NCBI GenBank assembly: GCA_964187785.1
Contig: OZ076409.1
Span: 17,672,001-17,736,000, forward strand
Reading direction: 5' to 3'
DNA: 64,000 nt
Origin: Amphiscolops sp. MND2022
Taxonomy: Eukaryota
Positions 8,504-59,954 of this stretch are shown here, piece by piece. The translations under genes were made by a program, and so were the position numbers. The notes beneath the pieces are model-generated. The model worked only from the letters and a program-made list of their open reading frames with translations. It searched no databases and had not been told where the DNA came from. Position 1 is the stretch's first letter, and the number at the start of each line of letters is the position of its first letter.

Positions 8504-8668
8504 ACAAAACGAGGGTGGCGACGACAAGGAGTCATTGAGAGTGAAGAGTCCTTCGAAGGAGCTGAAGAGGATAGTGCGCAATCTGCTGGACGAAATCAAC
8601 GAGGGGCGAGAACAGGCCAAAAGAGAACCCATCACAGAAATGGCATTCCAGCCACTCAACAAAAACAT
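8504..8668 (+). CDS. Probable internal exon (N-terminal region) of the Cys-less pLGIC gene
   Basis: Branch-like TACTAAT at 8481, acceptor TTTAG|, donor AT|GTTAGT. GC-richer island encoding QNEGG...PLNKN. Its phase-2 end joins the phase-2 start at 17258 (AT+G = Met). Confidence 0.65.
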
Positions 8669-10084
8669 GTTAGTGTTAACAACTAAGTGTGAACAAATGG
8701 GCAGTGGACGTTTTCAGCATCTTCCTTTAGTGCTTCTGTCGAACCTTTGTCAAATTTTGTATTTGTCAAATTACAGGCATTTCTAGTTTGATTTTTAAAA
8801 AAAGATTCATACTTCCATTGAAAATACGGAAGATAACACGGAGTGTTTTGCTTTTCTGAAGAATCGATGAGATCACCTAGCCGCTGAGATTCTTTGTTGA
8901 AAAAGGAAATCTTTAGTAGAAGCTCGTTTTCAATTCTAGGAAATATTTTATAAGCATGCATGTATGTAAATTTCCACCCATATTTCAAATGGGAAAGGAA
9001 AATGTTTAAATCAGAATGTTTTTTTCCCAAAGTTTCAAATTTATATTCTAGTTAAAAGGGTTCACCCATTGAATTCAACTGACGTAAATTTAGTTGCATG
9101 CGATATTTTTTATAGAGATGTTTCGACTTTTTTTAGTTGACCCCAAAGACCCCATATGCCATTTTTGGCGAATTTTCGGGAGACTTCGTGAATTAAAAAA
9201 ATGAAAATCTCCAAAACGAAAAATCTTGTCCGTTGGACATTTGTGAAGAAATAAATGCTTTTATTTGATAGAAAGAAGTCTCAAATGGATACAAAAATAG
9301 CAAAAAATCCAATAATTTCCGGTTCTTGTAGTTTTTCATAAAATTGGTGACAATATCCGAGGGTTTGCACGGGTTAAAAGGTCCAAAACGTTCAAAGACG
9401 AAAGAACTGGCTATGCGATACACTTTTTAATGAGAAAGTTGCAGCGTCCAGAGTGACTCCAAATGAAACACTAAATCGCAGAATTTCGTTTTTCTTTGTC
9501 GTTTTTTATGTAATTTTTGTGTAGGTTTTGAAAGTTTTCGAAGACAAATTTTTGAAAACGTTCAAAAATTAATGAAATTGTTCTCAAGTAGGCGCACTGA
9601 AGAGATATCCGCATGCTAAGCGTCGTAAATTAGATTGTGATTTAAGCACCAAAAGAAGAATTCAACCCGGCAGTACGCCTTTCATAGGAAGTTACAATTT
9701 TCAAGGAAGAACAGTACCACAAATTGACTAAAACTAACTTTTGACTTTTTCGGGAAATTTTAGTGATATTTTTGAGCTTTTTCATGGGGTAGAATGGTGT
9801 AAATATTCACCATTGACTGAATCCGGTATCCAGTAGGCAGTTTTGAAGAGACCTCTGCAGTTTCTTTCCTGAGAACTGTTTCAAATTGCTCAAATGAGTG
9901 AAAAACGTCCAATATTTTTAATTTTTTGATTTTTAGTGACGTCATTACGATACATATGCCGCAACGAACCAGCAAGATCTTGCTAGTTCGATAAAAAGCT
10001 AATAGAAACGCGTTCTTATTTCTGATACGCGTTACGAGGTTTGCTTGTTACACTGTGAGATTTGGCGTTATGCGTAGTGATCAA

Positions 10085-10340
10085 AGTACAGTAAATGACT
10101 ACTTTACAATTACGTACTTTGACTGGTTTCCACTTCACACACGAAGACGGAAGTTGATTGTTTTACACATTATTCTGGGACACATTTTGACTAGAATTCA
10201 CTTTCAAAGTGAAAAACAATCAAAGTGTGAAAGTTAGTGATAACTTTGACTGTTTTCCACTCTGAAGGATTCGTCGTTTTCTTTCAAACCAGGTACACAT
10301 TTTGACTGGAATTCACTTTGGCAAAGTGTGTAAGTTAGCA
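10085..10340. repeat. Diverged local direct duplication (~120-bp unit)
   Basis: The series ACTTTGACTG(G/T)TTTCCACT ... CACATTTT(T)GACT(A/G)GAATTCACTTT ... AAAGTGTG.AAGTTAG occurs twice in tandem. Confidence 0.6.
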
Positions 10341-11319
10341 ATTTTATAAGGATATATGCTAATCGCATTAATCGGCAAATTAATTAAACGGTTTTGTTTA
10401 TAAAAAGATATAACACTTGGTAGATTAGGTATTGGTTGTCACTTGGTTCAGCAATAAAACAATTTGGTACTTAGCGTAATTAAAGGAGTTTTCTTTAAAA
10501 ATGGAATATGAATCAAGCAACGCCACTTTGTTGTTCATTCGAACTTCTATGCGTTTTCATAGTGCATTGGCAAGTTGTGAGCCTCAAAGTCATGTCGTAG
10601 TAGAACAGTTTGTGGCGAAAAATATTTCGCTTTTCAGTCTTAGTAATCGTAAAAACCCTTTTCAGTTGAAAAAAAAATTTGAATGAGGCTGATAATTTCA
10701 ATACCGAATTGCGATTATTAGTTTCAAACATGTTATATCACAAGACAGACTTTTCCGATGAATTATTCAAACCTAATTTTTTTCTGTCGATTTGCGATGA
10801 TTTTCCAACTCTGCAATTTTGAACACGGTATTCTTCGTTCTCTTGTTCCCAAGTTTTCCCCGAATTTCCTCCACAGCACTCCGTGTTTGTTGAGAGTTAA
10901 GGTTCAATGAGTTCAGATCAATTCAGAGAATTCCCGACAATCAGAAAGACTGTTTAGAAAAAACAGTTCTTAGAAAGCAAAGTTCGTTGGAAATACTACA
11001 AGTTATGAAGTTCCGGCATTCATGAAGGAATAGATGCTCAACTAAACTCTAACAAATATATAATGCATGGGAATTTCATTGAAGAAACCAGATTTTTATG
11101 GTTTTAGAGGGGTCATAGAGGAAACATGGCGCCCCCCAAGCACAGGGATATCTTCCGCCTTCATAGTCGACTATTTTAGTTGCGTGACTATTTTAGTAGA
11201 AGATTCTTCTTCTTCTTCTTCTATGTCAAAGACTAAATGCGTCACTATGCGGACTTTACAAGAATAAACATACGTCACTATGCGGGAATGAGATTCTGAG
11301 CATACGTCATACTGGAGCG

Positions 11320-11570
11320 AGTACTTATAAAATCAAGTACTTATAGTACTTATTGTCAAGTACTTATGAAAACAGTCAAGTAATTATAAACTCAAGTACT
11401 TTTTAAAATAGTCATGTACTTATAAATTAGGCAAGTACTCATAAAAATAGTCAAGTAGTTTATGGAGATTACTCCACAAGTAGTTGTTTGTGGAGATTTG
11501 GAAGAATTTGAAGGAAAAAACGCAACACAGATTATGATTTTCCTCCCCCCTTATATGCGGGCAGAAAATA
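11320..11570. repeat. AAGTACTTAT-type minisatellite plus a dispersed-repeat end
   Basis: About 9 degenerate AAGTACTT units. The following GGAAAAAACGCAACACAGAT.ATGATTTTCCTCCCCC.TTATATG recurs at ~52645-52690. Confidence 0.65.
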
Positions 11571-11599
11571 GTAAATGGATCTCAGTTAGACTGCCGCTG

Positions 11600-12000
11600 T
11601 GAATATAATGAGGAAAGTCTAGAAAAACATTGTGTTCGTCATGGGTCGACACTGGGACGGTTTCTGATTCTTTTCGTACAATAATGACTCGGAAGAAGAT
11701 CTCAATGAAACGAAAATTGAAATATTTGCTGATGAAACAGCGACATGCAAATCAGGATCCGATTATAAATTAAGACCTAAACAAAGCAGTGGATTGCTTT
11801 ACGTCTAGCAAAATGTTTTTAACTATAGGCAATTGTGAAGTAAAGAAACTTTTGGAGGAAATTCGAATCTCTTGATTAAGAAAGCGCAATTATTTTCCGG
11901 AAAATCCTGCAAATACTAAGCATTCAACATCTATCTCGATTGTAAGTTGCAAGACATCATCTTTGTGTTGAAAAGTTTAACGAGTGCTGCCGAATGGTGC
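11600..12000 (+). mobile_element. Highly decayed LINE reverse-transcriptase 3' relic
   Basis: Remnant motifs VRHGSTLG (GVPQGS-LGP-like, ~11633) and IFADET (YADD-like, ~11722). Confidence 0.5.
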
Positions 12001-13499
12001 ATTAAGTTCGCCACCTGTACCCTCGAAGATGTTTACCTATGCTCTTCCTTTCTACCGTGTTACTCCTATCATAATCGTTTTCAGAAACGGGGGCGGGGAT
12101 GTCTTGCATGGAGGGGGTGTCTTAATTGAGTCGTTCAGAAGCTTTGACGTTTATCACTAATTTCAGATCTAAAATTCAAATAATAAAGGCTTCTCTTTTG
12201 AAACGACGAACCTTAAACCAAGATTTTCATGTTTTTTGTTAGTAGACTCGGCTCATTTTCTACATGGTACGGTCGTTTTTTCTGTGAAAGGAAATAACGT
12301 CTCGTACTCTAAGGTTGCCATATTCAGAGATTCAGGATTTGTCTTACATTGGGAGCATGCCTTAAAATATTGGGAGAAACATTGTATCTACAACTAAGGT
12401 ATTATTTCACGAATACTCATTAGCTTTTTATCAAACTGTTGTACTGATTACTTCGATTCTGTTTGTTGACTGAATACGTTGCATTTTCATGGAAACGGCT
12501 GCCATTTATACGATTCGGTCAATCTTTGAGAATGGAAAGTGTGTCAAAGAAAAATATTACTTTGACAAATTTCATGCTTGAAATTCTCAGAAATTTTATA
12601 TTGTTCAAAATAACGAGATAGTATTCCCCCAGTATATGCCATATTGAATGAAGGAAAAATTTCTAGGATCAGTTAAGTAATGAAATTTCGGAGAAATCTT
12701 CAAACAGTGTAAAGTCTCAAGTGCAATTTTGCAAGGTGAAGGTGAAGCAATTACTCCTGGAATTGAAAAATCAAACAAAAATACATTCCAATATGATTAC
12801 ACCGTGGATGTTTCATTTCTTTGGTGAGTTTTGCAAATCTCAATTAAACAATGTAATCTTGACAAGAAAGAATGTTCTGATTATATCTGAGAAGATAGAC
12901 AGACTTCAAAATGATATTTGCTGTCGTCTTTTAATTTGTATTTTAATGCAATTTTGTGAAGCGACAAACACAAATTTTCTCTTTGAAAAGAGATTTTTCA
13001 TTTTCTCAGGTAATTGAAGAAACCTCCAATATGATTGAGTTTCATATAATCATTTTTCCAAGTAGAATTACGCATAGTCCCTTAAAACCTAAAGCAATGC
13101 AATCTTCATATCTGAAGGGTCCTTTTTCGGAAATTGCGGCACTGTGTGACTTTTGAAGAGAACAATTCTTTCCACCTAGATGTCTCATCTTCAATTTTAT
13201 TGCTCCTTTCAGTGAGAAAGAAAAAAGTCTTTTTTAGCCTGAAATTGTCTTTGCTTCGATTTTTCCAGCTTTTTAGATTTTTTTAAAACATTTTTTTCAT
13301 CAAATAGACTTTTTTTGGCCAGGTATTTGATACTATTTGTTTTCGAACTTGGGTTTTTTTTTCAAATTCAAGTGTCTTATATCCGTTTTCTGCTTTCCTT
13401 AGGTTAAAAATCTTTTTGTTATAAAAGTTTGCTCCAACCGATAGGATGATGTTGATGAGGACCGTTACAGACTCTATGTACAAGCCTCCAAAAAATCAA

Positions 13500-15700
13500 A
13501 GACGGTATGTCAAAAATTTTCCATGAGTCCCATATTTGACCATGAAAAGCTTTTTTCTTGCAGCAGAACTATGTGTTTCATTGAGTTGAGGCAGCTATTA
13601 GAACGACTTGGGGGTGCCTTAAGCCAGGCTGGAACTTTCTATTACCAAAACTTCAGTTTCTAACACACACTGATTTTTCGCTGAACTTTTCCATGTGACG
13701 GAGACTCTATGAACTTTTTTCCACATTCTGGAGCCTCCATGGTGGCTTTTTTCAAGAGTCACTTAGGCTTGGTCACACATTACGAACAACATTAGATAGG
13801 GCAACCCGTGCGAAACGAATGCGTAAGTCCTATATTCACCGAGATGTTGTGAATTCTTGAACTAATTATCAGAAACATAAGAGCTCCTATGTAGGGAAAA
13901 CGGAGAAAACACAAGGTGTTTTTCCGAATATTGTACGCGAGGCAATATATACAAGCCAAGAACAACAGAACATTTTATCAATGATAACAAAAGTGTTTAA
14001 GAGGAGTTTGAACGTTTGCTTTACAAACTCAGCGTCATACACAAGTTGTGGTAATCCTTGTAGAATATCCTTCTCTGTAGAAGTACTTCTGCGTGGCTTC
14101 ATCAGCTCCCTCATTTCGTTTATGGTCAGTCTGTATCGCTCCTTTGAGATGATCGCGATAACGCGCTTCATGGTGGCCCTCAGAGGGTCTTTAGTATTGC
14201 GAAAGTTTCGCAGTTATTCTATCATGTCGGCTCAACGTTCACTTTCGCTGCAATTTCTCGGGAACGATAACTTGTTGTTTCTACTTCTTGGGGTCCCAAG
14301 GCTGGCCAGTGACATGGTAGTCCCCACTGAGGAAGCAATAGACGCAGTATCTGATTTCAGCCGATGTTGAGTAGGTGCCCAACGTCACAGTATCGGCAGT
14401 AGCGTCATCACCAGCTGTTTCTTTTTCTGGTTCTAATTGGAAAGCTTCATTGACCTGGTTTTTGCTATTGGAAGCTGTCCTGAGGGCATATGCTTGGAGC
14501 GTTTCTGTGATGATTTCCCGTTGTCTCCCGAAATAGCTCCAATTGCTGAAACCTCCGACGGAGCAATGTAATGACGGTCCGAAGTTACTTCATTGTAACT
14601 TGTTTTGGATCAAAAATGCTCGCTGCGTCTTGCTGGGCCTGTCACGGATGTGGGTCTCTCAACATTTCGAAGTTTGTTTAGTCTACATTTCTTTCACTTT
14701 ATTATCAAGAAAATTGACATGAAAGCGAGTTCCAGGTATGTGGAACCATTGGAAACGATGGTTTCTTTTTCTGACTGTTTCTGTCAGTTTCGTCAGTACC
14801 TTCAAGCTGGGCAGGCCTTTGAACCTGCTTTTTTGACGAACCTTGGACTCGTTTCGGCCAAAAACTTTGTTCCGCTCCTAGTTCGCTGAAATTTCTCCAA
14901 AAGTTGTACTGAAGCTGACCTTGTGTGCCGGGTTTTATGTCGACGCATCCACTTTACGAACATTTTCAGTGTGGATAGCAGCTTCTGCATCGAACTTTGG
15001 GTATAATCGTTAGATTCTTGGAAAGTAGGAATGATTCCGCCAATGTTGGTGGCGTTTTTCAGTTGGTTGGTATCTCGGAAGATTTTTTAACGAACCATTG
15101 ATGAAACTACCCGATTTCGGTTCACAGAGTACTTACATAAAACCATGGTCAGTTCTGGATAGAATTCCGCGGACGAGTCCTTGTTTTTGACAGTTAGGAT
15201 AATATGCTCAGGAACTTCGTGCAAGTGTCATCTTGCGTTAGTAATTGGAGAGGACAGTTAACAGATTGAACCACCGTGATTCGAGGTTTGGTGAAAGGAC
15301 ATGAAAAAAATTTTGGTGGACATCTTCTAACTCGGGATGCATTTTTACTTACTGGCGAATTTGTTTAACCTTTAATTGCAAATCGTACAAATTCGGAAAT
15401 CGAATTTGCTACCCTGGGTAACCTTTTTCTTGGATTTTCTCCTTTTATGGATTCATTCGAGGTTCATTGTTTGGTCCTTGGCCGTCTGCATGGGGCATTG
15501 ATTTGACAGGAGAGACAGGTCCAAACTAAGATCATGCGCGAAACTTGTTTTCATTTGATGCATCTTTCGGATGTCTTGTTCCTGCATCTGTGGAGTCTGT
15601 TCTCCAACTTGAATCATGGCATCGATTGATGAGGTGTCCACACCTGTTGGTATTTGTTCGGAGGAACTCATATTGATTTTTGGAGGTCTTTGTTTTGTTT
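13500..15700 (-). other. Degenerate coding-like relic of unknown origin, probably transposon-derived
   Basis: GC-richer block with several broken minus-strand ORFs (13887-14171, 14802-14990, 15453-15671). No recognisable motif. Confidence 0.3.
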
Positions 15701-17257
15701 TGGTAGCGACTAATTGCGATTTTAAATGAGGATGATTAACAACAGACTGATTCTCACACGTCTACTCTGAAAGTGATTGTGAATGATTGAATAAAATACT
15801 ATATCAAAATTTCTTGAAGTTCTTGACTCTGGAAGTGTGAATGGATAACCAGTTAGAGTTAATACGCGTTTAAAGTGTGAAAATTCGCACCTTGCTAATT
15901 ACCAGAGTGGTGAAAACTGAAATATGTAATTGTAAACTTAGCTTCTCTGATGTTTCGAAAATCGCGAAATCTTTGAATTGGGGCTGAAAAATTCTAAGCG
16001 AGGAATATGCTCGAATGGGCCCCTACTGAAGCCTCATAAAGTGTCGAGTGCGAAAGTTTACTCTGTGAGCTGAAATGTCAGAAAGACTCCGTTTTTTGAC
16101 ACATAGAGACGCTATGTAGGATTTTGGAAAAGTATTTGAGTACACAGGGTCTTTAATCATCCTGTATCTGATTTTCTTTTCAGACTTGCCAGAACGAAGA
16201 ATTGAAAGAATTCAAAATTGTTGCGATGACCAGAGTTAAATCCTTCAACTCTCATTATCGGTAAAAATTGAATTCTTTCAATTAGTATCCGAAGGGGTGC
16301 CGATTTAAAAAAGGAGAACAGCTTTTTCGGGGTACACCCCGCGAAATTGGGAAATTAACTTTCTTCTTTCTCTTTTTCTACCGTTCATATAACGTATATC
16401 ACAAAAAAAAACCCGCTGATTGTGAATTTTTGACATCAGTTTCGTATGATTTTACGTTTCGCCTTAATGAGCGTGGGGTTCTCGTGTCTGCTAAGATTAA
16501 AACTTTGCATTTTACATTTGATCTTGAATGGCTGTTTCCTGTTATAACATTTAGCGCAAAGAAAATGCGCTTCATCCAAAATATTATCGTTTTTACGACT
16601 ATTTTTGGATGTTGTGAAGACGAAAACAAGTAAATACTTTTTCCTTATCCTCATGCGGAACTCTGTTTTCACAAGTGGATTATCCAGTTTTAAGATCAGT
16701 AGGGGCTTTCCTTTATCAAATATCCCGTTACATTTAATGGCAATCTTTTAAAGAATGATGGTGCCTGTCTTGCCTAAAGAAGTCTTTGCAGATTGTACGA
16801 GAAGTGTTGCAGTGCCACTGCGATTGGTGTTTCCAGGTCCTGTTAGACAGATGTCGTGATAAATATTGTTTTGTATGAAATTGTATTTTTCGAAATAAAT
16901 TCAACTCATGAAAAACTCTGGTGAGGAAACTTCGTGAATAAAGCTTTCGGTTATAACATATCTAGACTTTTGAGTGATGCTTTTGTTCAGCAAGGTTGTT
17001 CAAAACATTGCCGATTTGTACTCTATCAGTAAAATTATCTTCAGAAACCCAAAAGAAAAAGTTCAACGGCGAATTCTTTCAAAAGTGTTGAATTGGCGCT
17101 GTGTTTAGCACATGTTTCAGTTCGAATTATTCAGTATTATGGCCTTTTTGAAACAGAAGGATCTAATTAGTTTCAGACACGTTGAGCGAACCCTCTTTCC
17201 GTTTCGTAATACCAGAAACCTTCTGCCGAAATATGACGTCATAAGTGCATGTTTCAG

Positions 17258-17467
17258 GCGCAACTGTTCCTCAGCACGGACTGTGCACGTGATGTTTGCG
17301 TTTCTGTCCATATTCGACATCGAGACAAAGAGACAGCTGTTCACCACTGAGGTCGTGATCCAGGCACGCTGGGTGGAACCAGCTCTCAAGAAGAACGAGG
17401 TCGTTCATGGCACGCTGTGGAGGGACAAGTGTCCTTCTTACTTGAACATATGGGAGCCCAGATTAAG
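17258..17467 (+). CDS. Exon of Cys-less pentameric ligand-gated ion channel (LBD beta1-beta2 to loop A)
   Basis: TTTCAG| acceptor and AG|GTCAGT donor. VHVMFAFLSIFDIETKRQLFTTEVVIQARWVEPAL...IWEPRL fits the pLGIC pattern V.v.....I.dId...q.f........W.dp.L...W.P.l. Confidence 0.88.
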
Positions 17468-20169: not shown

Positions 20170-20466
20170 ACAATGTATTTCAGTTAGACACCCTTTTGGA
20201 CCTCGGAAGTATGTAGGAGTCGCGGGAACTCGCTAGAAACCTTAGGATTCGTTTTTACAGGCTTGTGGGGTGTGTCCGGACTTTGAGAGTGCCGGCACGT
20301 CGCCTCGGAGCTCTAAGTAGAGGAGCCTTGTGGCCTTGGAGAAAGAAAAGGCCCCCTTGGAGACTATTTTGGGAACAAAAACTAGTGTTTAGGGATGTAG
20401 TAAGACAACGGTCTCCTGTTTAAGCACCCTAGGCATTTTCCCTCTTCCTAGATGTGCGCCACTAGC
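20170..20466. repeat. Dispersed MITE-like repeat; related copy at ~27290-27520
   Basis: Shared blocks GTGT.CGGACTTTGAG...GTCGCC.CGGAGC and GGAGAC.A.TTT.G.GAA.AAAAACT..TGTTTAGG..TGTAG. Ends GCGCCACTAG. Confidence 0.55.
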
Positions 20467-20613
20467 CGGGCGGTACTTTAATATTGTTTGGAGTGCCAAG
20501 ATACTCCCATGATTGGCCAAGTTTTGTCTCGAAAGACTTGCGAGTTGTTTTAGATGAAGATAATTTTTCCTCAAACTGAAAACTGGATTGCTTTCAAAGC
20601 CCCTGATAATGTT

Positions 20614-22496: not shown

Positions 22497-23111
22497 CTAT
22501 TTTATTTTTATTGCGGTTCCATAGGTGTCATGAACATTTAAACCAGGAAAATCATTGTCTGACTGATTCCCATCTTGTTCATTTCTTAAGCTGTTTTTTG
22601 CATTTAAGTTTCGCTGAACTTGGGAAGGCAGTTCCGGTCTCTCTGCCGGAACGTCCCATCCTTTTCTGGTCCCGTGTCCCGATCCGGCCATAATAACGTT
22701 TTGGATTTGAGGAAGTACCTGAGTACTTATCGCGTCACTTATGGCCCTCTGTATCTGAACACTCACAGAATTCATCATCTCATCCATTTCCCGTGAAATG
22801 CAGGAATTCAATTCACTTGACAACCTGTTAATCTCAGCACTAGAGTTGGCTGTAACTGAATTTTGATCATATTCGGTATTTGATCTAGGGTGATCATTTC
22901 TCTGATTTCTACTTACATTTCCATTTTCATTCTCAGATTCATTGCTTGCGAAGCTTCTAGACCTTCTAGGCAAGTTACTGTTCATACTACCTTCTCTCTC
23001 TCTTGCGTTAAAGTGATTTTCACCTAACATAATGTCTATGTTCTCGATATCTGACAGTATTTCGAGTCCTCTTGACTTTCTTGCCTTTTTCTGTTTTCTA
23101 GTAGAAGGCAT
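22497..23111 (-). CDS. LTR-encoded ORF (204 aa), probable Gag N-terminal leader, reading out of the solo LTR into flanking DNA
   Basis: MPSTRKQKKARKSR basic start, S/N/E-rich middle and an amphipathic helical segment. Crosses the LTR edge at GAC A|, the same register as gag in the full element at 7043. The last 9 residues come from the flank. Confidence 0.7.
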   Translation of the reverse strand: MPSTRKQKKARKSRGLEILSDIENIDIMLGENHFNAREREGSMNSNLPRRSRSFASNESENENGNVSRNQRNDHPRSNTEYDQNSVTANSSAEINRLSSELNSCISREMDEMMNSVSVQIQRAISDAISTQVLPQIQNVIMAGSGHGTRKGWDVPAERPELPSQVQRNLNAKNSLRNEQDGNQSDNDFPGLNVHDTYGTAIKIK

Positions 23112-24264
23112 TGAAACAATTCCGAATTAACAATGAATTATTCAATACGGAAAATAACAGCGAAACCGTTTGTAATTCAATCTTTACTAGTAGCGTCTCA
23201 AATGAATTGTGTCGCACTCAGGCCGAGTATCAGTATATATACTCATGAGGGGATGACATTCACATACTTTACATTACTAGTCAAGAAAAATGGGGTCATG
23301 TGATTTTTTACTTCACAGGGAATGTCCCGACAACTGCATATTATTAGGGGACATTTAGGGAAAGGCATTCAAAAGTCATTTGATCAAGACAGAGGTATCA
23401 AATCAGTTATTAACTAAGGCATCATATCAAAGCGTCAACAAATGCCTCCGCTCACATTCCTTACAGCGGAGTGTAGTGAAGGCACGTGCCGACACGAGTT
23501 ATTGAGAATGGAATGCATCATCACGTGTATATTGCTTCAATACAATCCAAATATATATGAGAACGCACTTTCATGTTAGAGCCGGATCAGGCCCAAAATT
23601 ATAAAATACACAGCTTTCAAAGAGACATGGTAAGATGGCCTTAATCGTCCATCTTTTTAGGTTAAGATTGTACAGACATTAAAGCGTTACAAATGCTTTA
23701 ATTTAGTTTCAAATCATGGAAAGTTAGCTCCGAGTAATTACTTGCTTAATTAGATAACAAAACACTATAATGCATGAATTGGCCGGAACCGGCCATTTGA
23801 CATGAGTACCAGCAAGCGTGCACTGTGTTAAGTCAAAAGGCCTTATTCGGCCATTATGTAATAAAAGCGCTAATAATTCAAAAGGAACGATATGATTGGC
23901 TGACAATGTACAGCAAGTTACGTCGCCGAGAAAGGACGTTTCCGCACTTGAACACGTTTCCTTCTCGCGATTAACTTGCTTGTTGTTTGTTATTGCATCA
24001 AATCAATCTTGCATTTCAATTCTATTCTACAGTAAATACATCAGCAAACTGATTTGGCCTATCCCAAATCGTAATATTAACAGACTAATATAAACTGCAA
24101 CGTATTGGAAAATGTAATGGTTTGAGGGCAAATATTGTTACTAAAAGTAAGTTTTGAAATACAAAATATACTTGCTCAAAATGTAGGCAAAGTTCCGGGC
24201 AATGTCTCCTGGCTTGTCGCTGTTGTCGTTATTAAAGTACCGTCACAGGCGGCAGCCTGCGACA
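22526..24264 (-). mobile_element. Solo LTR (1739 bp) of a Gypsy-like family
   Basis: TGTC...GACA termini with an exact 5-bp TSD ATAGG at 22521-22525 and 24265-24269. Confidence 0.9.
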
Positions 24265-28128: not shown

Positions 28129-29637
28129 TGTTGACGATAAGCTCAAGCAAAAACAAAGTAGAGGAATCGAATGTTGTATTGATGAAGTGGTAATTGAAAT
28201 GTTTGAAGCAAACTGTTTTTGATAAAGGCTGTCACGCAAAGTGACTAAGGTTAGCAAGATTCAGATTAATGTTTAACAGGTATTGTTTACAAATAAGTCT
28301 ATGATCTTTAATATCTACCACATTTCCCCTTTTACGGGTTTTTACAATTTTTTCCTCAAATTTGAATGTTTAATTAATACAAATGTAAATGTTAATAGCT
28401 TTTACATTTGATTAGCACAACACAAATGTTAAGATTATACAACACGATTAAGCCTGTTTTGGTACAACTAAAATTTCTGCGGTTAGCAGGTTTGTAGTCT
28501 TTTTCTTCTATTCTGCTGTTGTTTTCGAGATCAGATCGATCCCATATCTCTTTGTTGGGACTCTCTTTCTGTCCAGTACCCAGTAGTGGCTGGCCATGGC
28601 TTCTCCACTTCCCATCGAATTGTTGCATTGATGGGGTTTGCGCTGTTCCCCGGGGTTTCTTCATTTTTCTTTTCTTTATCAGTTTCGGTTTTTATTTCAA
28701 AACCTCTTGTTGACTCATCACCTTTACAACCAAAATACAGGTTCGCTTTTTATGCTTGTTTTGGGGGTTTCACTCGAATGAGACTCGTACGCTTTTTGCC
28801 TTTTCACCCCCTCCCCGAAAGCTATGGCGAACTCTAGGGCTTGTTCCGGTTCTTTGGGCTCGGTGCAAAGTTTTTCTTGTACTTTTTTATTGTTCATGTG
28901 CAGAATGAACATATCTAGCACCAAAGTTGTCGATATTTCGCCCAAGTCACATTGTGCTGCCAATCCATTCAAGGCGTGCCAATACTGGTAGAGTGATTCT
29001 CCGGGTTGTTGGTATCTTGAGAAGAAACGATGTCGGTCTAGGGTGCGATTTCTCTTTTTCTGGAAGCATTCTGTACACAAATTTAACATCTCTCCTGCTT
29101 TGAGGTACCATAATGTAGTGTGTGGAAATTTATCTCGGAATTGCTTTCTCGCTGCGCCCCCTAACGATCTGTAAAGTACACTACCAAATTTCTTGTTTGC
29201 AGGGTCTTCGTCCAAGTCCCCAGTAAGGGCTCGAACCCTGGGACTTTGTTCGGTCACTTAACGTGTGAGCTTCGTGATGGATATTGAATATTTTGCCATT
29301 GCGGCAACTTGAAAGATCCACCCACTTGTCCCATTCCGTAGTTGGGTTTTCGTCTGCATCGTGCCAAAACACTGGGAGACCCACCAAATGTGTCAATGAC
29401 GAAGTCTGCACAGAAGAATTTTCTGAATTTGCTCGCAGCGCCATGTTGACGATAAGCTCAAGCAAAAACAAAGTAGAGGAATCGAATGTTGTATTGATGA
29501 AGTGGTAATTGAAATGTTTGAAGCAAACTGTTTTTGATAAAGGCTGTCACGCAAAGTGACTAAGGTTAGCAAAATTCAGACTAAGGTTTAACAGATATTG
29601 TTTACAAATAAGTCTATGATCTTTAATATCTACCACA
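28129..29637 (-). mobile_element. Non-autonomous mini LTR element (194-bp LTRs, gag-only, pol deleted), Gypsy/Mag-like
   Basis: Direct repeats 28129-28322 and 29444-29637 (TG...CA, 4 differences). PBS TGGCGCTGCGAGCA (tRNA-Ser-like) at 29443-29430. PPT AAAAAGGGGAAA abuts the 3' LTR. Flanks CATAC/CAGAG are an imperfect TSD. Confidence 0.92.
28724..29444 (-). pseudogene. gag: Frameshifted, truncated gag of the mini element
   Basis: WDKWVDL and RNRTLDRHRFFSRYQQPGESLYQYWHALNGLAAQCDLG...KVQEKL, a retrotransposon capsid-like Q..GES motif. Confidence 0.8.
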
Positions 29638-43128: not shown

Positions 43129-43354
43129 ATTAAAAAATCTAGAGGAAGTGAAACGAGGGAGAGACGATAGGTGGTACGTAGTCAACTGGCCCCCCAATCA
43201 GGACTACGCGGAGATCATCTACAGACGCAAAGTGAGGGGCGCCTTCTACCAGAAGATGGAGTTGCAGCATTTCCCCGTCGACGTGCAGGCAATCAGTGTA
43301 CAGGTGAACACGGACCTCGACAACTCAGAAATATCACTCAAGGAGGATGACCAG
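43129..43354 (+). CDS. Exon of Cys-less pLGIC containing the beta6-beta7 (Pro) loop
   Basis: Poly-T TTAG| acceptor and CAG|GTAACT donor. The phase-2 join gives IWEPRLRLKN. YRRKVRGAFYQKMELQHFPVDVQAISVQV has the FPxDxQ motif without flanking cysteines. Confidence 0.9.
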
Positions 43355-49800: not shown

Positions 49801-50229
49801 CCTCAAAGATATTGCTTAAGTTAAACACTGCTACCCAAAAAACTTCAAAATCAGCATAATTTTTTTTCCAAAGTAATATGCAGAGAGAAAAGCTTGTTAT
49901 CGACTACATAGTTCGATGGACTACTTGTGATAAGCTTGTTTACTTGATAACGTGATAGTGTCCTCAAATCTATTAGTGTCAATTTTGCTTCCATTAACCA
50001 AATGTTGGTTAGACGGAGGAAATTTTCTAGGGACCGCCTTTTTAGAACAGTCCGACTGTATTGCACCGGCATGAATTTTTTCATATTCCATCGAATCCTA
50101 TGTGTTCCCATGCTACTGATCTGAAGCACTATGAAAAACTTAGGGGCTTCCAAACTAAGCTGCTTGAAACGCTCTTCGATGTTCTCAACAATGAAAAGTT
50201 CAAAAGTGTCAAGATTCCGTTCGTTCAAA

Positions 50230-51940
50230 GACAATGACATACGTATTTGAAGTGCTCATTGGAAAAAACTGCTTGCAAAATTCTTCGTTGCGCTTTTTCA
50301 GTTTTCGACGACTTTTCGTTTGCAGCAGTATTAGTATTAGTATTAGTATTCCACAACCAATTCTGGATCTTCACAAAAAAACTTTTATAAAATCATTAGA
50401 CGTTTTTGGGCATACAAAAGAACTAGACGATAAATAATGCAACTATATTATTGGAAATTTTTATATCGTAATCAATCATGATGTTGTCTCTGAAACGCAG
50501 CGTTATTCCCCTTAAGCACCTTGAAACTTGAACGCATTCGAATAAGGCAAACAATTGGCCTAATTAGAACTTTCACTGCGGTGACCGCATGCAGAAGCAA
50601 TTGTTTCGAATTTATCTTTGTTTATAAGACGTTTATTTGTTCCTACCTGATTGAAACAAAAAAACGTTTTGTTTTGAACCTATTTTCGTTGTATCATCTG
50701 CAAACATCGCGTTTATACAATTCCCTATACCCAATTGAATACCATAAATCACCAAATGAAAAAAATTGGGCCCAAAATTGTACCCAAAATTGAGCACAGG
50801 GGCACACCTTACCCATTTTGTTTTTTTTTGCAAAACCGGTTATAACTGTTGAACTGCTTACGATCTGAAAGATAATTTTTAACAATTTTGAATTTCGTCA
50901 TCCAAAGCCATAATCTAACAAATTGTTCAAGGAAGCAATGATCCAACCTATCACAAGTTTATTGCAAAGCAGTAAAGCAAGCCTGTCCTTGTGCGTTTTT
51001 AGCAATTTCATCACCAATGAATTCTTTTACTGCATCAACACAAGATATATTGTTTCTGAATCGATGATGCAGGTGAAAAATCAGATTATTTCTCTCGGTG
51101 AATTGTAAGAATCGTTGTGTAGGAGTTCATCAAAGACTGAACTCAAAAATTTTCAGCAGGCTAATTGGACGATATTTTCTGGGACCGTGTTTCTCCCCTT
51201 TCTAAAACAATTATACAACTTTGGCAGTTTTGAAATAATTTAAGGAATACACCTTCATCTATACCTTTATCAGTGGGAGGTTCGAGATGATGTCCAATAT
51301 TGAGAGAGCAGCATTTCATAACTTCATCACTGATCCCATCCTTTCCACAGCTTTTCTGGTTTTTCAATGCTGATATTCGTAACTTCGAACTCTCCAGTGG
51401 GTACAAGAAACAAAATTTCGTCACACAGTTTGTTGCCGGAAGTGACGCAGTTTTTGGTAGGCTGGATGATAATGATGACCCAATTGTTACAAACGGTCTT
51501 TCAAATCTTCTAATTTTAGAAGTTGATTGGGTTGCTGATCATTGTTTTTCAATTTGTGTTTTTTGCTTGACCATAGAGTGTTTAAAGTCAGATTGGCTGA
51601 CTGAGTTACCATTAGGTTTCACACGATTTTCAGCCGATGTCTTTTCGTAACTTTGCTAGGAAATATGTTAGGAAAAAATTCAATGCAGTGTGTCCTGTCA
51701 GAGTTTTTGTGTTCTTTATCATTGTCAGGTTTGAAACAATTTTTGTATCGAATGAATGTTCCTTGGTAAAATAAAGCAAACAGAAATTGATCACTGAAGT
51801 TAAAGGAAATGGGTTCAGTGCTAACCCCATTTTGGGGTTTCGTGTAATCATTGCAATTATCAGAAGTAAGCCTGACCCTTGTCGGTAATTCATTTTGTAT
51901 TTTAAAGTCATACGCTTCCAAGCGAGCTACATATTTCTTA
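50230..51940 (-). mobile_element. Decayed LINE (CR1/L2/Jockey-like) ORF2 relic
   Basis: PTRV...SDNC (APE end), ISALKNQKSCGKDGISDEVMK, DEGVF and MFADDT in the expected order on the minus strand. Confidence 0.75.
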
Positions 51941-51952
51941 TTCCAAGCTATT

Positions 51953-52300
51953 TTTAGTCGGTGGTTTTCGTAGAAAACGCAGACTATTGCAGTGACTTTT
52001 GTTTTATTTTTTAAGACCAACGAAATGACAGACTTTATAAGCTTTATATGCTGACTTGAACTAACACTAAATGCCACACTACTTGAGATAGAGGTTAATT
52101 AGGTTTTTTTGAGATCCCTTTTTACATTTTTCGCCACTATGCGACTTACCGGACCAAAAAAATTTTGAAAAAAATTTCGATTTTTTTTTCAATTTTTTCC
52201 TCATGCGGGTACTGTAGAAGAGAATACTTGACACTTCGAAGTCCTTTTGCTATTTTTGAGCCTTGGATATGGCGCCGACTTGGGCCGATCCCGGCTTGTT
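51953..52300 (+). mobile_element. Helentron/DINE-1-like element
   Basis: 5' TTTAGTCGG...GACTA and 3' GGCGCCGACTTGGGCCGATCCCGGCTTGTT. Confidence 0.65.
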
Positions 52301-52958
52301 AAAATATGGATCTCAAAGTCACCAAGAAGCAGTGTTTCACGGACCAAAGTCTTAAAAAATACAATGAATTCTTTATATGGCCTCCAAAATTGTTAATTTT
52401 GACAGTGTTTGGTCAATATTTTGAACATAGATTGTAAATTATTTTTTCACCTGTGTTGATAATTAAACTGTGGTATATGAACCTTGAAGGACACAACTTG
52501 GAAAGATAATCCAATTGCATTTTTTCCCGCATTATACCACATACCACTGAGCTAGGAATGAAGGACTTGACTATCCACTATCCACTACTTGACTTTTTTA
52601 GTTACTTGAATATTTATGGAGATCGCGGAGATTTGGCAGATAATGGAAAAAACGCAACACAGATCATGATTTTCCTCCCCCTTTATATGTGAGCGGAAAA
52701 TAAATAAGATAAATCCTCATTCGAGTTTTTGTAATTTTTCAAATTCAACTATGATAAACTGCAATCTTTTCTATTCTGTTTCAAAAGGGCTTTGAAGCAA
52801 ATAAGAGACTTACAGAACTCAATTGGTTAAAAAGAGAAAAGCAACTGAAAAGCGACTGCTCCTCTTGTTTGGGTTCATGTAAAAAGATTTTTCGCCAGCA
52901 TGTGATTGTTAAGCCCCGAGGATGAATAAGTCTATAAATAGAGTGCCTGCACATGTAT

Positions 52959-53396
52959 TTTAGTCGGCGCTTCATGAAGTGAAACGCGACTATCATAGTG
53001 ACTCTTTTTTCAATCCACAGGAACTGACAAAATGATTCTTGAAAGTTCTACGAAACTTCATGCTGTCAAATTGAAGCATTTGGTCCGGGGAACTGAACCA
53101 AAAAAGTTTTTCTTCTTTTATTCCGCGTAACATACAATACGAGACTAAAGGATCCCCATTTCAGTTTTTGTTTCGGCGTTGTGAGACTTTTTTTTTGAAA
53201 AATTTATAATGTCCTCAATTTTTTTGATGTTTTGCGGCAGAAATTTTGAAAATCTCAAAGCGTCCCACCTGGCGCGCCAATTAGGTCCAACTTTTGGGTT
53301 TTTTGGGTACTGTAAAAAAATACTTGACTTTTGAAGTCCTCTTGCTATTTTTGAGCCATTGATATGGCGCCGACATATGCCGTTCCCGCCTTGTTT
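52959..53396 (+). mobile_element. Helentron/DINE-1-like element
   Basis: 5' TTTAGTCGGCGC...GCGACTA and 3' GGCGCCGACATATGCCGTTCCCGCCTTGTT. Confidence 0.7.
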
Positions 53397-53699
53397 ACTT
53401 TTATTGGAAATTTCTTTTGGAAAACGAACAATTGTGTCAGAAGCAAAACAATCATTGTACCCCTTCCTTATTAATCCATTGAATTGACGTAAATTGAAAG
53501 TCGAATGAAAATATGAATATTGTTCAAGACAAATAAATGCAGACAATCGCGCCATTTTACATCCGCGTCTTATCAACGCCATCTGTTTGTTATTTTTCAG
53601 CAATAAAAATGACGAGCACCTAAAATGTCAGCATTACTCTTCTGAAACAAACGTTTAGTTTTTGGTAATGTGAAAAACGGTCATATGGCATTTCGTCAT

Positions 53700-54095
53700 T
53701 TAAACTTCAATCTCTGCTATTTCAACCGTTGCCATTTCAACCACTCACATTTGCAATTTCAACTGTCCGCAATTTCGACCTCAACTAATTTTGGCTATTT
53801 AATATTAATTCAGTTGAGCTATTTTTGAAGTACAATAAATACTAATGAATCAAACAGCCTTAACTAATGGTAATTATTCATGAAGAAGCCAAAACGTATC
53901 AAAACTGGCGTAAAAATTGTCACATTTGAATTTAGAAATGTGAGTTAAAACCACCGAAATAATTGTGTAACTTATAAGGATCCATTAGCGAAAATTGGTT
54001 TAGGTTGAAATTGCGGACGGTTGAAAATGCAATATGTTGAAATTGCGAGCGGTTGAAATTGTGAGTGGTTGAAATAGCATAGGATGAAATATCCT
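53700..54095. repeat. Foldback/MITE-like element with ATTTCAACC / GGTTGAAAT subterminal repeats
   Basis: TGCTATTTCAACC...GTCCGCAATTTC on the left is mirrored by GAAATTGCGGAC...GGTTGAAATAGCA on the right. Confidence 0.65.
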
Positions 54096-54280
54096 GACAC
54101 CGTGAGAAACGACGTAAACGAATGCTGAATTTCAAAGGCTAGTTGGGAGCCTGATTGGCTGAATCCTCATGAATTCGAACAAGGATTCATAATGCTTCAA
54201 CTACTCACACAGGCTGCTAGTTTCGAATGTTCTTCTTCACTTTTCGATTCCAGACAACATTTCTCTTTTGCTTTTGTTTT

Positions 54281-54776
54281 TTAGTCGGCGCTTTTCTTAA
54301 GAAAAGAGTCGACTATAGTCATGGCTTTTCGTCAGTGTTTTTGTTTCGTCAGTGGCTTTTCGTCAAAGACCACCTGAAGTGACCAAAATAGTTCTAACAA
54401 AAGTTCTACAAAATTTTGAGAAGACGCCAAATTGTACCTGTTGGCCCAAGGAACTGAACCAAAAAGGTTTCCCGCGTAACATACAATACCGGACGAGACC
54501 AAAGAGTCCCCGCTTTAGATTTTTTCGGCACTGTGCGACTTTTTTTCAACTTTTTTCCCATCAAAGAGTCCCCTTCATTTTTTTGGAGTTTTGCAACAGA
54601 ATGGATGTTGAAGAATCCCAAAGGGTCCTCCTTTTCAGTTTTTTTGGCATTGTGAGACTTTTTTTCAATTTTTTTCATAAAAAGTTCCAAATTCACCAAT
54701 ACGTCGACATTTTGAAGTCCTTTTGCTATTTTTGAGCCTTAGATATGGCGCCGACTTGGGCCGGTCCCGGCTTGTT
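54281..54776 (+). mobile_element. Most complete Helentron/DINE-1-like (HINE) copy
   Basis: Sub-TIR AGTCGGCGC (54283) / GCGCCGACT (54748), 5' stem-loop, 3' GCCGG-TC-CCGGC hairpin, CTTGTT end, T-rich insertion site. Confidence 0.75.
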
Positions 54777-55369
54777 TCTCTTTGCATGCACACTCGGAAC
54801 AACAATTGGCTGACAAATTTTTACCTGCTTGTCCCAAACTCTGCCGAGGTTAATAAAGAAAGGAGCGTATTTCTTCAATTTTGCCTCATAGAATGAAGAA
54901 AATCAAAAAACTTTGGAAGATGTCATCTACTATAGTAGTATTTTTTTGATTTTCTTTATAAAGACAACTTTCGTTTATTTAGACAATCATCAATGAAAGT
55001 CTTAACCGGAATTTGTTGTGAAAAAGACAAAAATTTATAACAAAAGTGAATAGTTTGAAAACCAAATGGATTATTCCGGCGTGACTGTGTAAAAAGATGG
55101 TTCTAATTCCATAACTTCGTCTTTCAAACGTTTTTTTTACTGTTTTATTCAGAGCTGTGTTCCCACTACCTAACTAATGGCAGGTTAATGAGCAAAAAGC
55201 AATATCCATCAAAGCTACTGACAGTGAAAGTTATCGCAAGTCCATTTCGGTTAATTGAGTCAATTTCGGTTAAAATCAGTGACTCCGAAAAAAAGAAAGA
55301 AAACGACCGTTTGTTGTCTCTCCTATGAGCCCTCATGAAACCATTGTCGGTTCTAGAGCACAATGAGGA

Positions 55370-56670
55370 ATTGCTGGACAAAAAATCAAAAATGGACTTG
55401 AAGTTTGTCTGTGGAGATGTTAATATAGATCTGTTGAATCTCGCATCTCGTGTTTTTTGGAAAACTTGATGAACTCACAAGGATTTGACTTGGTTAGACT
55501 GAGAGAGCCTACAAGGGATCCCTGATTGAAAGAAAGTGACATTCCCAGACCCGAAAGGTTCCGCACTAGATGAAAACATTCAGTATGAAGTGGACTTTAC
55601 AATCTCAAAAATATTTAACGAAACATGATCACTGTGAAAACTTCATAGTGACTCCTGATTAAAACTGTTGCGAGAGGTACATATGCTGAAAGATTTCTTG
55701 AAAGCATTGCAACAATACTCAAACAAGCAACAGAAGAAATATTTCCCGCTGAAAAATGAAACGACGCAAACACAGGACGTCATGGATAACAAATTGTATT
55801 AAAAGACACATCGCGATCAGGAATAAGCAACTGCCCAAGCAATGGAATGAAAGACGCAATGAAATTAGTATGGAACTTAGGATTGCTGAACGGAAGAATT
55901 TCGAAATACTATAGGTCGCACTAGTTCAGACGAATTTTTCAGAATACTAAAAAACCATGACAGGCGTCAACAATCAAGTGAAAAACTTCGTGCATTATCT
56001 TCTGATCCGTTTAACAATTATTCTGTGTTTTTTTTCTAGACCCAAATGATGAAGTTTCAAATAATATTGCGTCATTGGAATTCAAAAATTTTATTTTATT
56101 GGATAGTCAGATTTTTAAAACAAGCGGATCATGATGTTTTCGTTCTTTTTTGAAGAGCGCCATCATACAAATATATTACAAACTGTGTTTCCCCACAAGA
56201 TTCGAAATTTGAAAAGTTGTTACAAATATACAAAGGCGGATAAAAAATTATAGCAAGCAATTCCAGACCAGTTTCTAACTTGGGAAATCTACCAATACGG
56301 TTGGGGAAAATTATTCATTCGAAGGATTCCTATTTTTTTAGTCAATACGGATTCGAAAAAAAACTATTCAAGAATTCTTATTGCTTTGGGAAAATGCAAA
56401 CGAAGTGGTTAACTAAATTGAAGACCATTTTAACAATAACCAAACTGAAGACCATTTTGACATTTGTTGACTTCAGAAAAACGTTCGAATCTGTTGATCA
56501 TCAGGTTCTATTAACACATCAGTACCAGAGGTAAACTTATAATTTCAGGCAAATTGTTAGGAAGATAGACTTGAGTATGCGAGAAATGGAACAAATGTTC
56601 GAAGTCGAAACAAAACAAATATTGCGTCCCCCAGGGACCAATATTAGGTCATTTTTGCTTTTTGTTTTCT
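55370..56670 (+). mobile_element. Decayed LINE ORF2 relic (APE + RT)
   Basis: VCGDVNIDLL, REPTR, NSRPVSNL, FVDFRKTFESVDHQVLL and VPQGPILG in the expected order. Confidence 0.78.
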
Positions 56671-56886
56671 TACTGCTTCTGGAGAGCTTGAAAATCTGTT
56701 TTGAGAGTTACAATCTTTGAATTAGCATTTTGTCAAGAAGTTTGGTTTTGAGATACAACTGAATATGTCATAGTAATACTGGCTAGTCATAGTGTTATAC
56801 TTTAGCAATGGAAGAAAACAATGCACAAAAGTCGATGTTTTGTTTGCTCACTTGTTCAAAATTGTAGTCTTTTTTCCTTTGGGTTA

Positions 56887-57546
56887 AACAAGACGGGAAC
56901 GTCTACAGTCGGCGCTAAACCTAAGGCTCAAAAAGCCTAGTTTTCAAAATATGCGTCAGACAGTTTCATGAAAAACTCCTGTTTTCAAACCTCAGCCTCA
57001 TCGTTGATAAAACGCAATATAGATCAGATATAAAGCCAAAATTTCGGAGATAGCGCTTTAGTTCGGATATTACGAGGGGAGACTTCAATTAAATCGAAGG
57101 GTGGAGACAAAAAAAATAGTCTCATAGTCCCAAAATTGTAAAAAATGAACCCTTTGGATTTATTAACATACATTCACTTTCAAAATATTAAATAACTCGA
57201 AGGGGAGACCTTTTGGAGACTTAAAAAATCGGAAAAAGTGACACAGAGCCGAAAAAATTGATAGGGGGACCCTTTAGTCTCGTCCGGTTTTGTACCTTAA
57301 AAAAGTAAAAATTGAAAGCGGGGGCCTTTTGCACTAAGTATCTGCCGGCCGGACTTGGCCTCAGTAGTTTTAGTAGTTTCTGTGAAAATTGAACTGATCA
57401 GTGTGAGGTCTGTGGTCTGTAAAAAAAGTAAAAAAAGGTCACTGTAAAAGTCGGGCATTTTTCCTTAAAAGGATAAAGCGCCGACTAAAAAAGGTCACTG
57501 CTATAGTCGGACATTTTTCCTTAAAAGGAAAACGCGCCGACTAAAA
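56887..57546 (-). mobile_element. Helentron/DINE-1-like element with a duplicated 5' terminus; another 3' end at ~58055
   Basis: AACAAGACGGGAACG...AGTCGGCGC at the left. GCGCCGACTAAAA occurs twice (~57478 and ~57534) in a ~55-bp tandem duplication. Confidence 0.7.
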
Positions 57547-59849
57547 ATAAAGGGGGTACCCTTTGACAAAATGATTTTTTTTGAAAAAGATGCATAGTGA
57601 TAGTGCCGAAAAATTAGTAGGTCTTTTCAACAGGTATTGCAAAAACTCTCATCGGTTCCAAAAGACCGATGAATAACCAAAGATGTCACCAAATGCTTGG
57701 GAAATGGTTTTCTCCAACAGAAAAGTTTTAGGGGCAAATGCGCTGACTCCTAACTAGAGTACAAAATCACTTTTATCGCCGGAAAAACTGACCAGGATTG
57801 CGTTTATGCCTTCTCGTGTAGTCAGTGGTCTGGACAAATTCAGAATGTTTTCGATTACAATACCTTCAAATGTTCAATGTTTCCTTTAACCAATTACGTA
57901 GTGGTTTCAAAATCGGTAACATTGGACCCGAACAAGACACACAATAAACAAAAGGGTGATTATTGTGAATTTTTTTGGAGAATGATTTTCTAATTTCTAG
58001 TGCTGTAGTGCTATTGAATGCACTACGGAAATCGGGCGTTTTAAATTTTAATAAAACAAGGTGAGAACGTCTAAAGTCGGCGCTATATCTAAGGCTTAAA
58101 AAGCGCAAAGTTGCCCAGGACGTATTTATGAAACACTCAGAAAACAGTTTCGAGACACCCAAAGGGTGCTTTCAAGCTCGATAAGACTCGGAAACCACTT
58201 TTTCCCCAAGTGGGAACAAAAAACTTCGGATTTTACTTTTGGAAAATTATTAGGAAGATAAACTTGAGTATGCGAGAAGTGGAACCAATGTTCGAACGAT
58301 TTTATCATGAATTCGCAGATCTTTAAACTTTTGGCAATGGAGAGCTCGTTAGGCTCAGTTACAAGTAGATAAAACTGATGAATGCCTGTAAATCCCCCAC
58401 CAGATTCTGAAGCAAGCACAAAAAGGCTTGCAGAGTTTTTTGAAACAAAAAGCAAAAGCAATTCAAAAGAAGGAAAATTTTATTATAGGAAAGTATTTTT
58501 ATTATACTCTGAGTTCCTGTATCTTTGAGCTTCTAGGAAATCTTCCCACGGATTTCATAATTGAATCTTCAACTATGTTTTTCAATACAAATTTTCTTTC
58601 ATCATATTGTACTGCCCTTTGATAAGTGAAATCAATAAAATTCTTGAATTCTTTATACTTTCACAGCATTCTTCACTAAAATTGCCCTAATCAACCCAAA
58701 ACAAAGGTTCCTTTTCTAAGTGTTTTGTAGACTTTTTGTACCTTGCTTTGGCTTGAATAATGTCTTCAAAAGTTTTAGTGATTTGTATAACCTCTTTTGT
58801 TTCATACAGTGTGGAACGAAAATCTAAAAACACTCAATTTTGCTGACATAAAATTCAAAACGTAATTTTTTACATAAGCATTTGACACAAAAGTGCCAGA
58901 AGATAAACTTTCTTGGCAAATGTTTAATCAGATTTATAGGGTTTTTAAATGTTTTGAAATCAAACAATAATGATAAAAGTTATAAAACGTAGCTTATTTT
59001 TGACTTTTGGTATTTTCTGAAAAAAAAAGAAAAAAGAAAAAAGAAACGAGTTTCTTTTAGGCTTTTCTTGTTCCAGTCATAAAGACATCCAAGCAGTATA
59101 ATCGGATTTTTCATACATGAACAAATTCCTTTGTCCATTTCAATCAATTCATATAGTCTCAAAAGGCTTTAGATTCCAAAATAAATGTGGCGATCACGAT
59201 TAATGCCCAAAAAGTTATTTCCATTCCCTATCATCGAATAAAATCAATCCATAGTAGTTTTGCTGCTCATTAAATGACAGTTCAATGAAGAAGTAATGAT
59301 CCTGACATAACGGCCACCGCTCAAGTGACCTAAATCGGACCTGTCACCTGTTTCTGAAAACGTTTTTCGATTGCTTAAAAAACCCATTTATCCATGTTCT
59401 GATTCGGTTTTCGAAAGGACATCATTTATACCTTCCCACCGTCCAGCACCGTCTTTGCACATTGGAGGTACTTATAGAAGCTGTGGAAACTCTGAGGAGA
59501 AATGGTCTCCGCGACACGTACCTGTATTCTTTTCTCTCTGAATGATAATTCCCCGGTTAACGTAATCTAGAATTTGCCCAACCCCCCAGAAAAATATCAT
59601 CTTTGAATGAATTATATCAAAAGTACTTAAAAATAAATTTTCTAAACAGACTTTCCTTAACTATTTTGATGACGTCACACTTTCGATGACGTGTAATTTC
59701 ATACAATCAGATCCTAATTTGTGGCATTTTTTTCAGGGTTTTTCAAATATTCTCCGTGTGACGGAGAAAGGGAAAAAGTTCGTACATCTTGATCACGCTC
59801 CGTTGAATTGTTTCACAACAAAGTTTCAATAAGAAATCCTTTTCTTCAG

Positions 59850-59954
59850 AACTGTTCCATCATCTTCTGTGAAGCCTTCCGCAACGACCAGGAATGGAAG
59901 ATGTTCGAACACGTACAGATTCAAGAAGCTGGAAATTGGTCCAACGAGAACAAA
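59850..59954 (+). CDS. Exon of Cys-less pLGIC (beta8-beta9 / loop F region)
   Basis: TTTTCTTCAG| acceptor and AAA|GTTAGT donor; phase 0 matches the previous exon. Encodes NCSIIFCEAFRNDQEWKMFEHVQIQEAGNWSNENK with the pLGIC F....EW motif. Absent from the ORF track. Confidence 0.85.

Follow-up and report, generated by a model that had tools for sequence, protein, structure and literature searches.

The 64-kb stretch of DNA analyzed here (the window; C1:17672001-17736000, i.e. contig OZ076409.1 in the 1.07 Gb genome of Amphiscolops sp. MND2022, likely an acoel) carries on its plus strand the middle part of an intact gene for a Cys-less Pro-loop subunit of a pentameric ligand-gated ion channel (pLGIC) that likely lacks a signal peptide and likely spans the membrane in inverted orientation, the beta-sandwich sensor facing the cytosol. 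Genome positions are obtained by adding 17672000 to the window coordinates, and exon numbers below 1 or above 64000 continue the same numbering outside the window. The initial annotation had joined four exons within the window, and this chain was recovered unchanged: all four possess AG/GT ends and share one open frame with splice phases of 2, 2, and 0, and the other two frames contain stops. Related proteins extend across the second and third junctions (17467^43129 and 43354^59850), namely P0005 (source merc), which was retrieved with the Pro-loop exon as query, and XP_075239778 of Convolutriloba macropyga, a 569-residue protein (P0010) contained in the P0005 cluster. A chance chain of exons was ruled out since the orthologue bridges these two junctions, and a pseudogene was ruled out by the open frame together with 86% core identity to the orthologue.

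The proposed spread of more than 51 kb was right in being large but fell short, as the gene passes both edges of the window. Downstream, a tblastn search with XP_075239778 over the window and the following 200 kb revealed the two exons for the membrane helices M1-M4 that the initial annotation had expected there; both have splice sites and an open frame, and the last encodes a basic tail of about 110 residues after M4, followed by TGA. Upstream, an exon about 5.1-5.3 kb before base 1 matched residues 1-37 of XP_075239778 (E = 0.005; 364 kb searched), displayed AG/GT ends, and ended in phase 2, as the exon at 8504 requires. Altogether, the spliced model has at least seven exons, spans at least 75.7 kb, and reads through 572 codons uninterrupted by internal stops; its introns measure, in order, 13.6, 8.6, 25.7, 16.5, 8.6, and 1.0 kb (Table 1). 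Since the upstream exon contains no in-frame ATG, translation must begin either at a non-ATG codon or in an exon still farther 5'. A CTG in this exon aligns with Met1 of the C. macropyga orthologue.

The exon at 8504-8668 is the least certain of the four, with local scores against the orthologues of 28+30, compared with 65 for the best background frame among the 1123 frames of a 116 kb open-frame scan. Among 53 frame-compatible AG..GT candidates, it ranked first by homology and third by codon score; it is in phase with the upstream exon and likely corresponds to the helix predicted at residues 110-129 of the orthologue model.

Table 1. Exons and partial introns of the channel gene, and further genes of the family in the same genome (identity is to XP_075239778).
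Feature	Position	Strand	Content	Identity
Upstream exon	C1:17666664-17666891 (-5336..-5109)	+	N-terminal extension with amphipathic helix; no in-frame ATG	
13.6 kb intron, 3' part	1..8503	+	5' exon lies outside the window	
Exon	8504..8668	+	Charged N-terminal extension; open, AG/GT, 50% GC versus 37% in the next intron	
Exon	17258..17467	+	First strands of the beta-sandwich (ligand-binding-type) domain	66%
Exon with Pro loop	43129..43354	+	FPVDVQ at 43271-43288	83%
Exon	59850..59954	+	Conserved Trp of the family's QEW motif	78%
8.6 kb intron, 5' part	59955..64000	+	Two more exons lie beyond the window	
Exon	C1:17740570-17740825 (68570-68825)	+	Last strand, pre-M1 Arg, M1, M2	92%
Exon	C1:17741810-17742339 (69810-70339)	+	M2-M3 loop, M3, short acidic M3-M4 link, M4, tail, stop	68%
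Further family genes	C7:30.75M, C5:47.44M, C3:26.72M, C12:57.12M, C12:22.21M, C3:25.19M, C7:26.47M, C5:35.81M, C12:22.30M			

The assignment to the Cys-less pLGICs, made when only the four exons were in view, is now backed by a profile match, the fold of the orthologue, and the downstream M1-M4 exons. When the exons were searched singly, that at 17258-17467 matched the Pfam family Neur_chan_LBD (PF02931; E = 4.5e-06; 26.7 bits at a cut-off of 26), while the other three alone matched no pLGIC family; the orthologue itself matched PF02931 with an E of 1.8e-12 and PF02932 weakly (E = 0.0037). This orthologue (XP_075239778.1, LOC142335245, annotated as 'uncharacterized protein') shares 86% identity with the window gene over 270 core columns and has the same domain order, while the N-terminal extension and the tail diverge.

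Structural comparisons were made with an AlphaFold2 model of XP_075239778 and not of the window gene's own spliced protein. The model has a mean pLDDT of 70.9, with residues 161-510 mostly at 70-96 and a low-confidence loop at 325-339, and comprises a beta-sandwich and four helices, of which M4 runs on as a long helix to residue 528. Its fold is that of the animal Cys-loop receptors (GlyR, GABA-A/RDL, GluCl, and nAChR), with a Foldseek E of 4.8e-21 to GlyR and, in VIA-align, a Z of 26.2 and a root-mean-square deviation of 3.2 over 322 residues to RDL; Z was 23-26 at 14-20% identity across RDL, GluCl, nAChR, sTeLIC, and GLIC, and 21-24 for the prokaryotic ELIC, GLIC, sTeLIC, and 6v4a, the last with an extra N-terminal domain. 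Searches of the PDB revealed no solved structure close to the clade, the best match having an E of 3.1e-10 and the identities lying at 14-20%. A Cys-less loop and a short M3-M4 link are common to the prokaryotic channels and the window gene. In contrast to the animal Cys-loop receptors, the window gene has no loop cysteines, no M1 proline, neither a GEK nor a PAR motif, and no long M3-M4 loop; it possesses a long basic tail after M4, and no signal peptide was found.

The closest described group is the eukaryotic Cys-less clade defined by Jaiteh, Taly and Henin (2016; PMC4795631), whose biology that paper calls undocumented and for which it predicts non-synaptic expression. The hallmarks that its Table 1 and accompanying text list for pLGICs are present in the window gene, namely the F/YPxD loop, the conserved Trp, the pre-M1 Arg, the M2-M3 Pro, a basic M2 0' residue, and the 9' Leu. 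Around FPVDVQ, the two Cys positions are occupied by Gln and Ile, a pair that fits the polar-then-hydrophobic pattern reported for Cys-less channels in the same paper; this pattern, the FPxD loop, the conserved Trp, the pre-M1 Arg, and the M2-M3 Pro are common to the window gene, that clade, and the Schistosoma mansoni protein A0A5K4EMP5. In our own alignment, Cys occurred at either loop position in 2 of 97 clade rows, and the Trp of the QEW motif was kept in 95% of relatives. Across 101 rows, the loop Pro (100%), loop Asp (99%), M2-M3 Pro (99%), 9' Leu (97%), and pre-M1 Arg are conserved, the pre-M1 Arg and the loop motif having served as entry filters. Specific to the clade are an Asn in M1 (100%) and a Lys or Arg at M2 15' (99 of the 101 rows). 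The conserved coupling residues suggest a working gate.

Neither the ligand nor the permeating ion can be read from the sequence, because the segment before M2 (Pro-Asn-Phe-Arg) is neither the cationic GEK nor the anionic PAR motif, positions -1' (Phe) and -2' (Asn) hold no acidic residue, and the glycine-site aromatic and Arg residues of GlyR are not retained in the pairwise alignment. The schistosome Cys-less channels differ in having Glu at -2'. The M1 proline, replaced by Ile in the window gene and found in 4 of the 101 rows, is typical rather than required in pLGICs, being 77% conserved according to PMC4795631.

The gene is a new member of this described Cys-less (Pro-loop) clade. A homologue search against 1.84 billion representatives returned 3443 matches at E <= 0.001, and A0A5K4EMP5, which PMC9874803 names as a Cys-less channel, was among the best 150 of these (E = 1.6e-40). 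By phmmer, scores within the clade were 150-250 bits, whereas the highest-scoring PDB chain (GlyR) reached 42.6 bits, and the Atlas placed XP_075239778 among eukaryote-only clusters (0.93-0.96). In a tree of 58 rows and 274 columns, with three nAChR-type and two prokaryote-like rows as outgroups and no anionic Cys-loop or named algal row, the window gene paired with XP_075239778 (100/100) inside a 9-row branch holding all five acoel rows (100/100), and this in a 39-row branch (95/99) with A0A5K4EMP5 and the mollusc, flatworm, and rotifer members, including those of Aplysia, Biomphalaria, Brachionus, and Adineta. The phylogenetic check proposed at the outset thus grouped the gene with lophotrochozoan Cys-less channels and not with the nAChR-type rows. 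The grouping of the acoel genes with those of other animals is more in keeping with vertical inheritance than with a recent acquisition from algal symbionts, and these genes extend the clade to Xenacoelomorpha. Furthermore, XP_075239778 has no Cys pair before M1, and the scores favor the primary clade over secondarily Cys-less channels of the nematode lgc-34 type.

The designation of the gene as an orphan holds for its ligand only, given its close orthologue, its at least eight paralogues in the same genome, and its described clade. Nine loci with the family's M2 exon were found, the window gene included, with possibly a tenth gene, and the paralogues match proteins of C. macropyga and Symsagittifera roscoffensis, which together with the 86% core identity makes an acoel source likely. 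The Cys-less family is expanded in acoels, and alternative 5' ends are numerous among their RefSeq relatives, with 11-13 isoform records for each gene. Two relatives, P0075 (Pinctada) and P0076, carry two channel units in tandem and may represent merged gene models.

The N-terminal extension noted initially as charged is present but longer than first seen: at least 138 residues precede strand 1, and the found part holds no signal peptide or membrane anchor (h-score 0.95). As a signal rule, we required an uncharged 10-mer with a mean hydropathy of at least 2.0 within the first 40 residues. Out of 161 aligned relatives, 113 were usable (a Met start and at least 25 residues before the aligned first strand), and among these, one had a signal-like start and two a membrane-anchor-like 19-mer before strand 1. 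Cys-loop controls from the same genome passed the rule in 6 of 9 first exons, these nine being the ones with a Met in range among the 13 of 30 loci whose match covered the beginning of the Pfam model. For four acoel genes, 37 RefSeq isoform records were available, of which 36 were scored after exclusion of one beginning at strand 1; the 23 distinct starts reached a best h-score of 1.33 against the threshold of 2.0. Some relatives have 600-1000 residues before strand 1. ELIC/GLIC-type channels are exported, with a periplasmic domain and a short C-tail, and in the prokaryote-like P0029, too, the start was signal-like and the tail very short; in a contig scan with P0029 for further prokaryotic controls, none of the 90 pattern matches was confirmed. 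For the extension itself, the Atlas gave no lead (best 0.75).

Signal peptides direct export, and under the positive-inside rule, basic residues flanking membrane helices stay in the cytosol. Charges were compared over the 102 of 162 rows with four callable helices (54 were dropped for lack of helices, 3 for lack of the pre-M1 Arg, and 3 for lack of the loop), reduced to 101, window model included, by removal of one tandem model; the controls were the membrane domains, each encoded in one exon, of 19 Cys-loop genes of this genome (20 found, one omitted for a mis-called M4). Within 15 residues past M4, the median number of Lys and Arg was 5 in the clade versus 1 in the controls, with median tail lengths of 54 versus 6 and M3-M4 links of 18 versus 96 residues, and the M2-M3 loop was net positive in the clade versus net negative in the controls. 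With the pre-M1 segment excluded, a bias of Lys and Arg toward the side of the ligand domain was present in 32 of the 35 relatives that remained after de-replication at 45% identity versus none of the 19 controls and, counted per residue, in 31 of 35 versus 4 of 19; the window gene scored +5. By the positive-inside rule, this bias places both termini in the cytosol.

Together, the lack of signal-like starts and the Lys/Arg bias make a cytosolic ligand domain likely, and the absence of a signal peptide from the extension points to a likely inverted topology that the initial annotation had overlooked. We therefore commit to an inverted pentamer that opens in response to a cytosolic signal as the probable arrangement. 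M1 would then act as the first signal-anchor, with the N-terminal extension, beta-sandwich, M2-M3 loop, and basic tail after M4 in the cytosol, and the M1-M2 link and short acidic M3-M4 link on the extracellular or organelle-lumen side. The pore would be built from five subunits, either of this kind only or combined with paralogues, and be gated via the usual domain interface, the trigger being a small messenger, an ion, or a partner protein in the cytosol and not a synaptic transmitter; the reducing cytosol would also account for the loop disulfide missing in the clade. To our knowledge, all characterized pLGICs sense signals from outside the cell.

Several observations weigh against this arrangement. 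The start codon was not found: none of 147 ATG-plus-donor candidates in the 95 kb upstream stood out, and a signal-like start would result from three of them, each with an intron-like GC content of 32-33%. The signal rule measures hydrophobicity only, unlike SignalP, and was also passed by one intron translation (L053), and many relatives are gene calls whose starts may be wrong. The charge controls are all nAChR-type and from one genome, and 60 of the 162 rows were lost before the charge test. A scan of 46 long relatives for cytosolic domains fused to the channel was negative at E = 1e-4, as it was for 20 of those at E = 0.05; it returned only DUF4706 and, both below cut-off, PRC2_EED_ins and DUF7756. 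N-glycosylation sites were 33 observed versus 21.1 expected in the M3-M4 links (7 versus 4.1 after de-replication, p = 0.12) and 73 versus 88.7 in the beta-sandwich, a depletion that was gone after de-replication (39 versus 34.5), and the beta-sandwich of the window gene holds two N-x-S sites, one conserved in the orthologue. Because the control beta-sandwiches were not significantly enriched either (20 sites versus 15.1 expected), the glycosylation test has low power. Four relatives, flatworm and other (P0082, P0090, P0135, and P0198), carry long M3-M4 links with Thr/Ser-rich stretches and several N-x-S/T sites, as in many extracellular loops, with significance lost on de-replication.

The same two N-x-S sites and the missing start exon would suit a conventional orientation, which we consider unlikely. 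Under it, the gene would encode an orphan Cys-less channel, likely chemosensory or modulatory, with an extracellular ligand domain as in ELIC/GLIC, exported through an undiscovered 5' signal-peptide exon or by an unusual route. The solved pLGICs that match the orthologue model have this orientation, and long C-tails and basic residues need not set topology. Likewise, PMC9874803 and the sections of PMC4795631 at hand describe the clade with an extracellular domain, assuming the usual orientation and naming no acoel member in their text; the term 'signal peptide' occurs in neither main text. Such an orientation has to accommodate the single signal-like start among the 113 relatives and none among the 36 scored RefSeq isoform records, a charge bias opposite to that of the same-genome controls, and a leaderless export that is hard to explain with up to about 1000 residues ahead of the domain. 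Our search, outside which lay subscription journals and supplements, found no published claim of an inverted pLGIC, and the PMC4795631 alignment may include acoel rows.

Quite improbable, in our estimate, is an inverted protein that is no ligand-gated channel by itself and instead serves as a scaffold, as an obligate accessory subunit, or as a pore that leaks or is gated by tension. The loss of the GlyR glycine-site aromatic and Arg positions and of the M1 proline would agree with it, as would the planarian homologues in mechanosensory neurons mentioned second-hand in PMC9874803, whereas the clade strongly conserves both the coupling residues and the M2 pattern that lines the pore (0' Arg, 6' Thr, 9' Leu). 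Highly improbable are a pseudogene, an anionic Cys-loop receptor that became Cys-less secondarily, and a gene acquired recently from an algal symbiont: glycine and GABA-type receptors come out best in the PDB by sequence and by fold, but the fold matches are only 14-20% identical, and photosymbiosis transfer is mentioned as a possibility in PMC4795631, against which stand an open frame of 572 codons whose core is 86% identical to that of another species, introns of up to 25.7 kb, at least eight paralogues, and the nesting with mollusc, flatworm, and rotifer members (95/99), in a tree without anionic Cys-loop or named algal rows.

Beyond the single gene, the balance tips slightly toward an upside-down pentameric channel family in animals, from cnidarians to acoels (with at least nine genes), molluscs, rotifers, and parasitic flatworms, which would sense a cytosolic signal and form a second-messenger-gated class in sensory cells, absent from vertebrates. 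The role in sensory cells is a guess that draws on second-hand planarian data: citing Ross et al. (2018), PMC9874803 places the planarian homologues gabrg1 and gabrg2, putative members of the clade, in mechanosensory neurons, with RNA interference leading to seizure-like movement. If true, the inverted topology would explain the missing loop cysteines and could explain the lack of an identified ligand, because screens apply ligands outside. For the schistosome members, named as possible drug targets in PMC9874803, a cytosolic sensor would mean that drugs must cross the membrane.

The pLGIC repertoire of this genome is very large (PF02931 matched 150 of 150 scored candidates, out of 430), with tandem clusters on C8, C4, and C7 and the membrane domain often within one exon. 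Minus-strand open frames at 22497-23126 and 28724-29257 resemble retroelement gag remnants by eye, with no Pfam match. The intron before the exon at 8504 contains, on the minus strand at 1053-7154, a long terminal repeat retrotransposon of the Ty3/gypsy order with gag-like DUF1759, protease, reverse transcriptase, RNase H, and integrase, its pol being split over several frames. A Polinton-like element (L076 and neighbours) lies upstream on C1, some 9.5-21.3 kb ahead of base 1, where it may sit in the gene's first intron, and encodes a double jelly-roll capsid-like open reading frame (E = 2.2e-22), an rve integrase, an A32-type ATPase (below cut-off), and an endonuclease VII domain.

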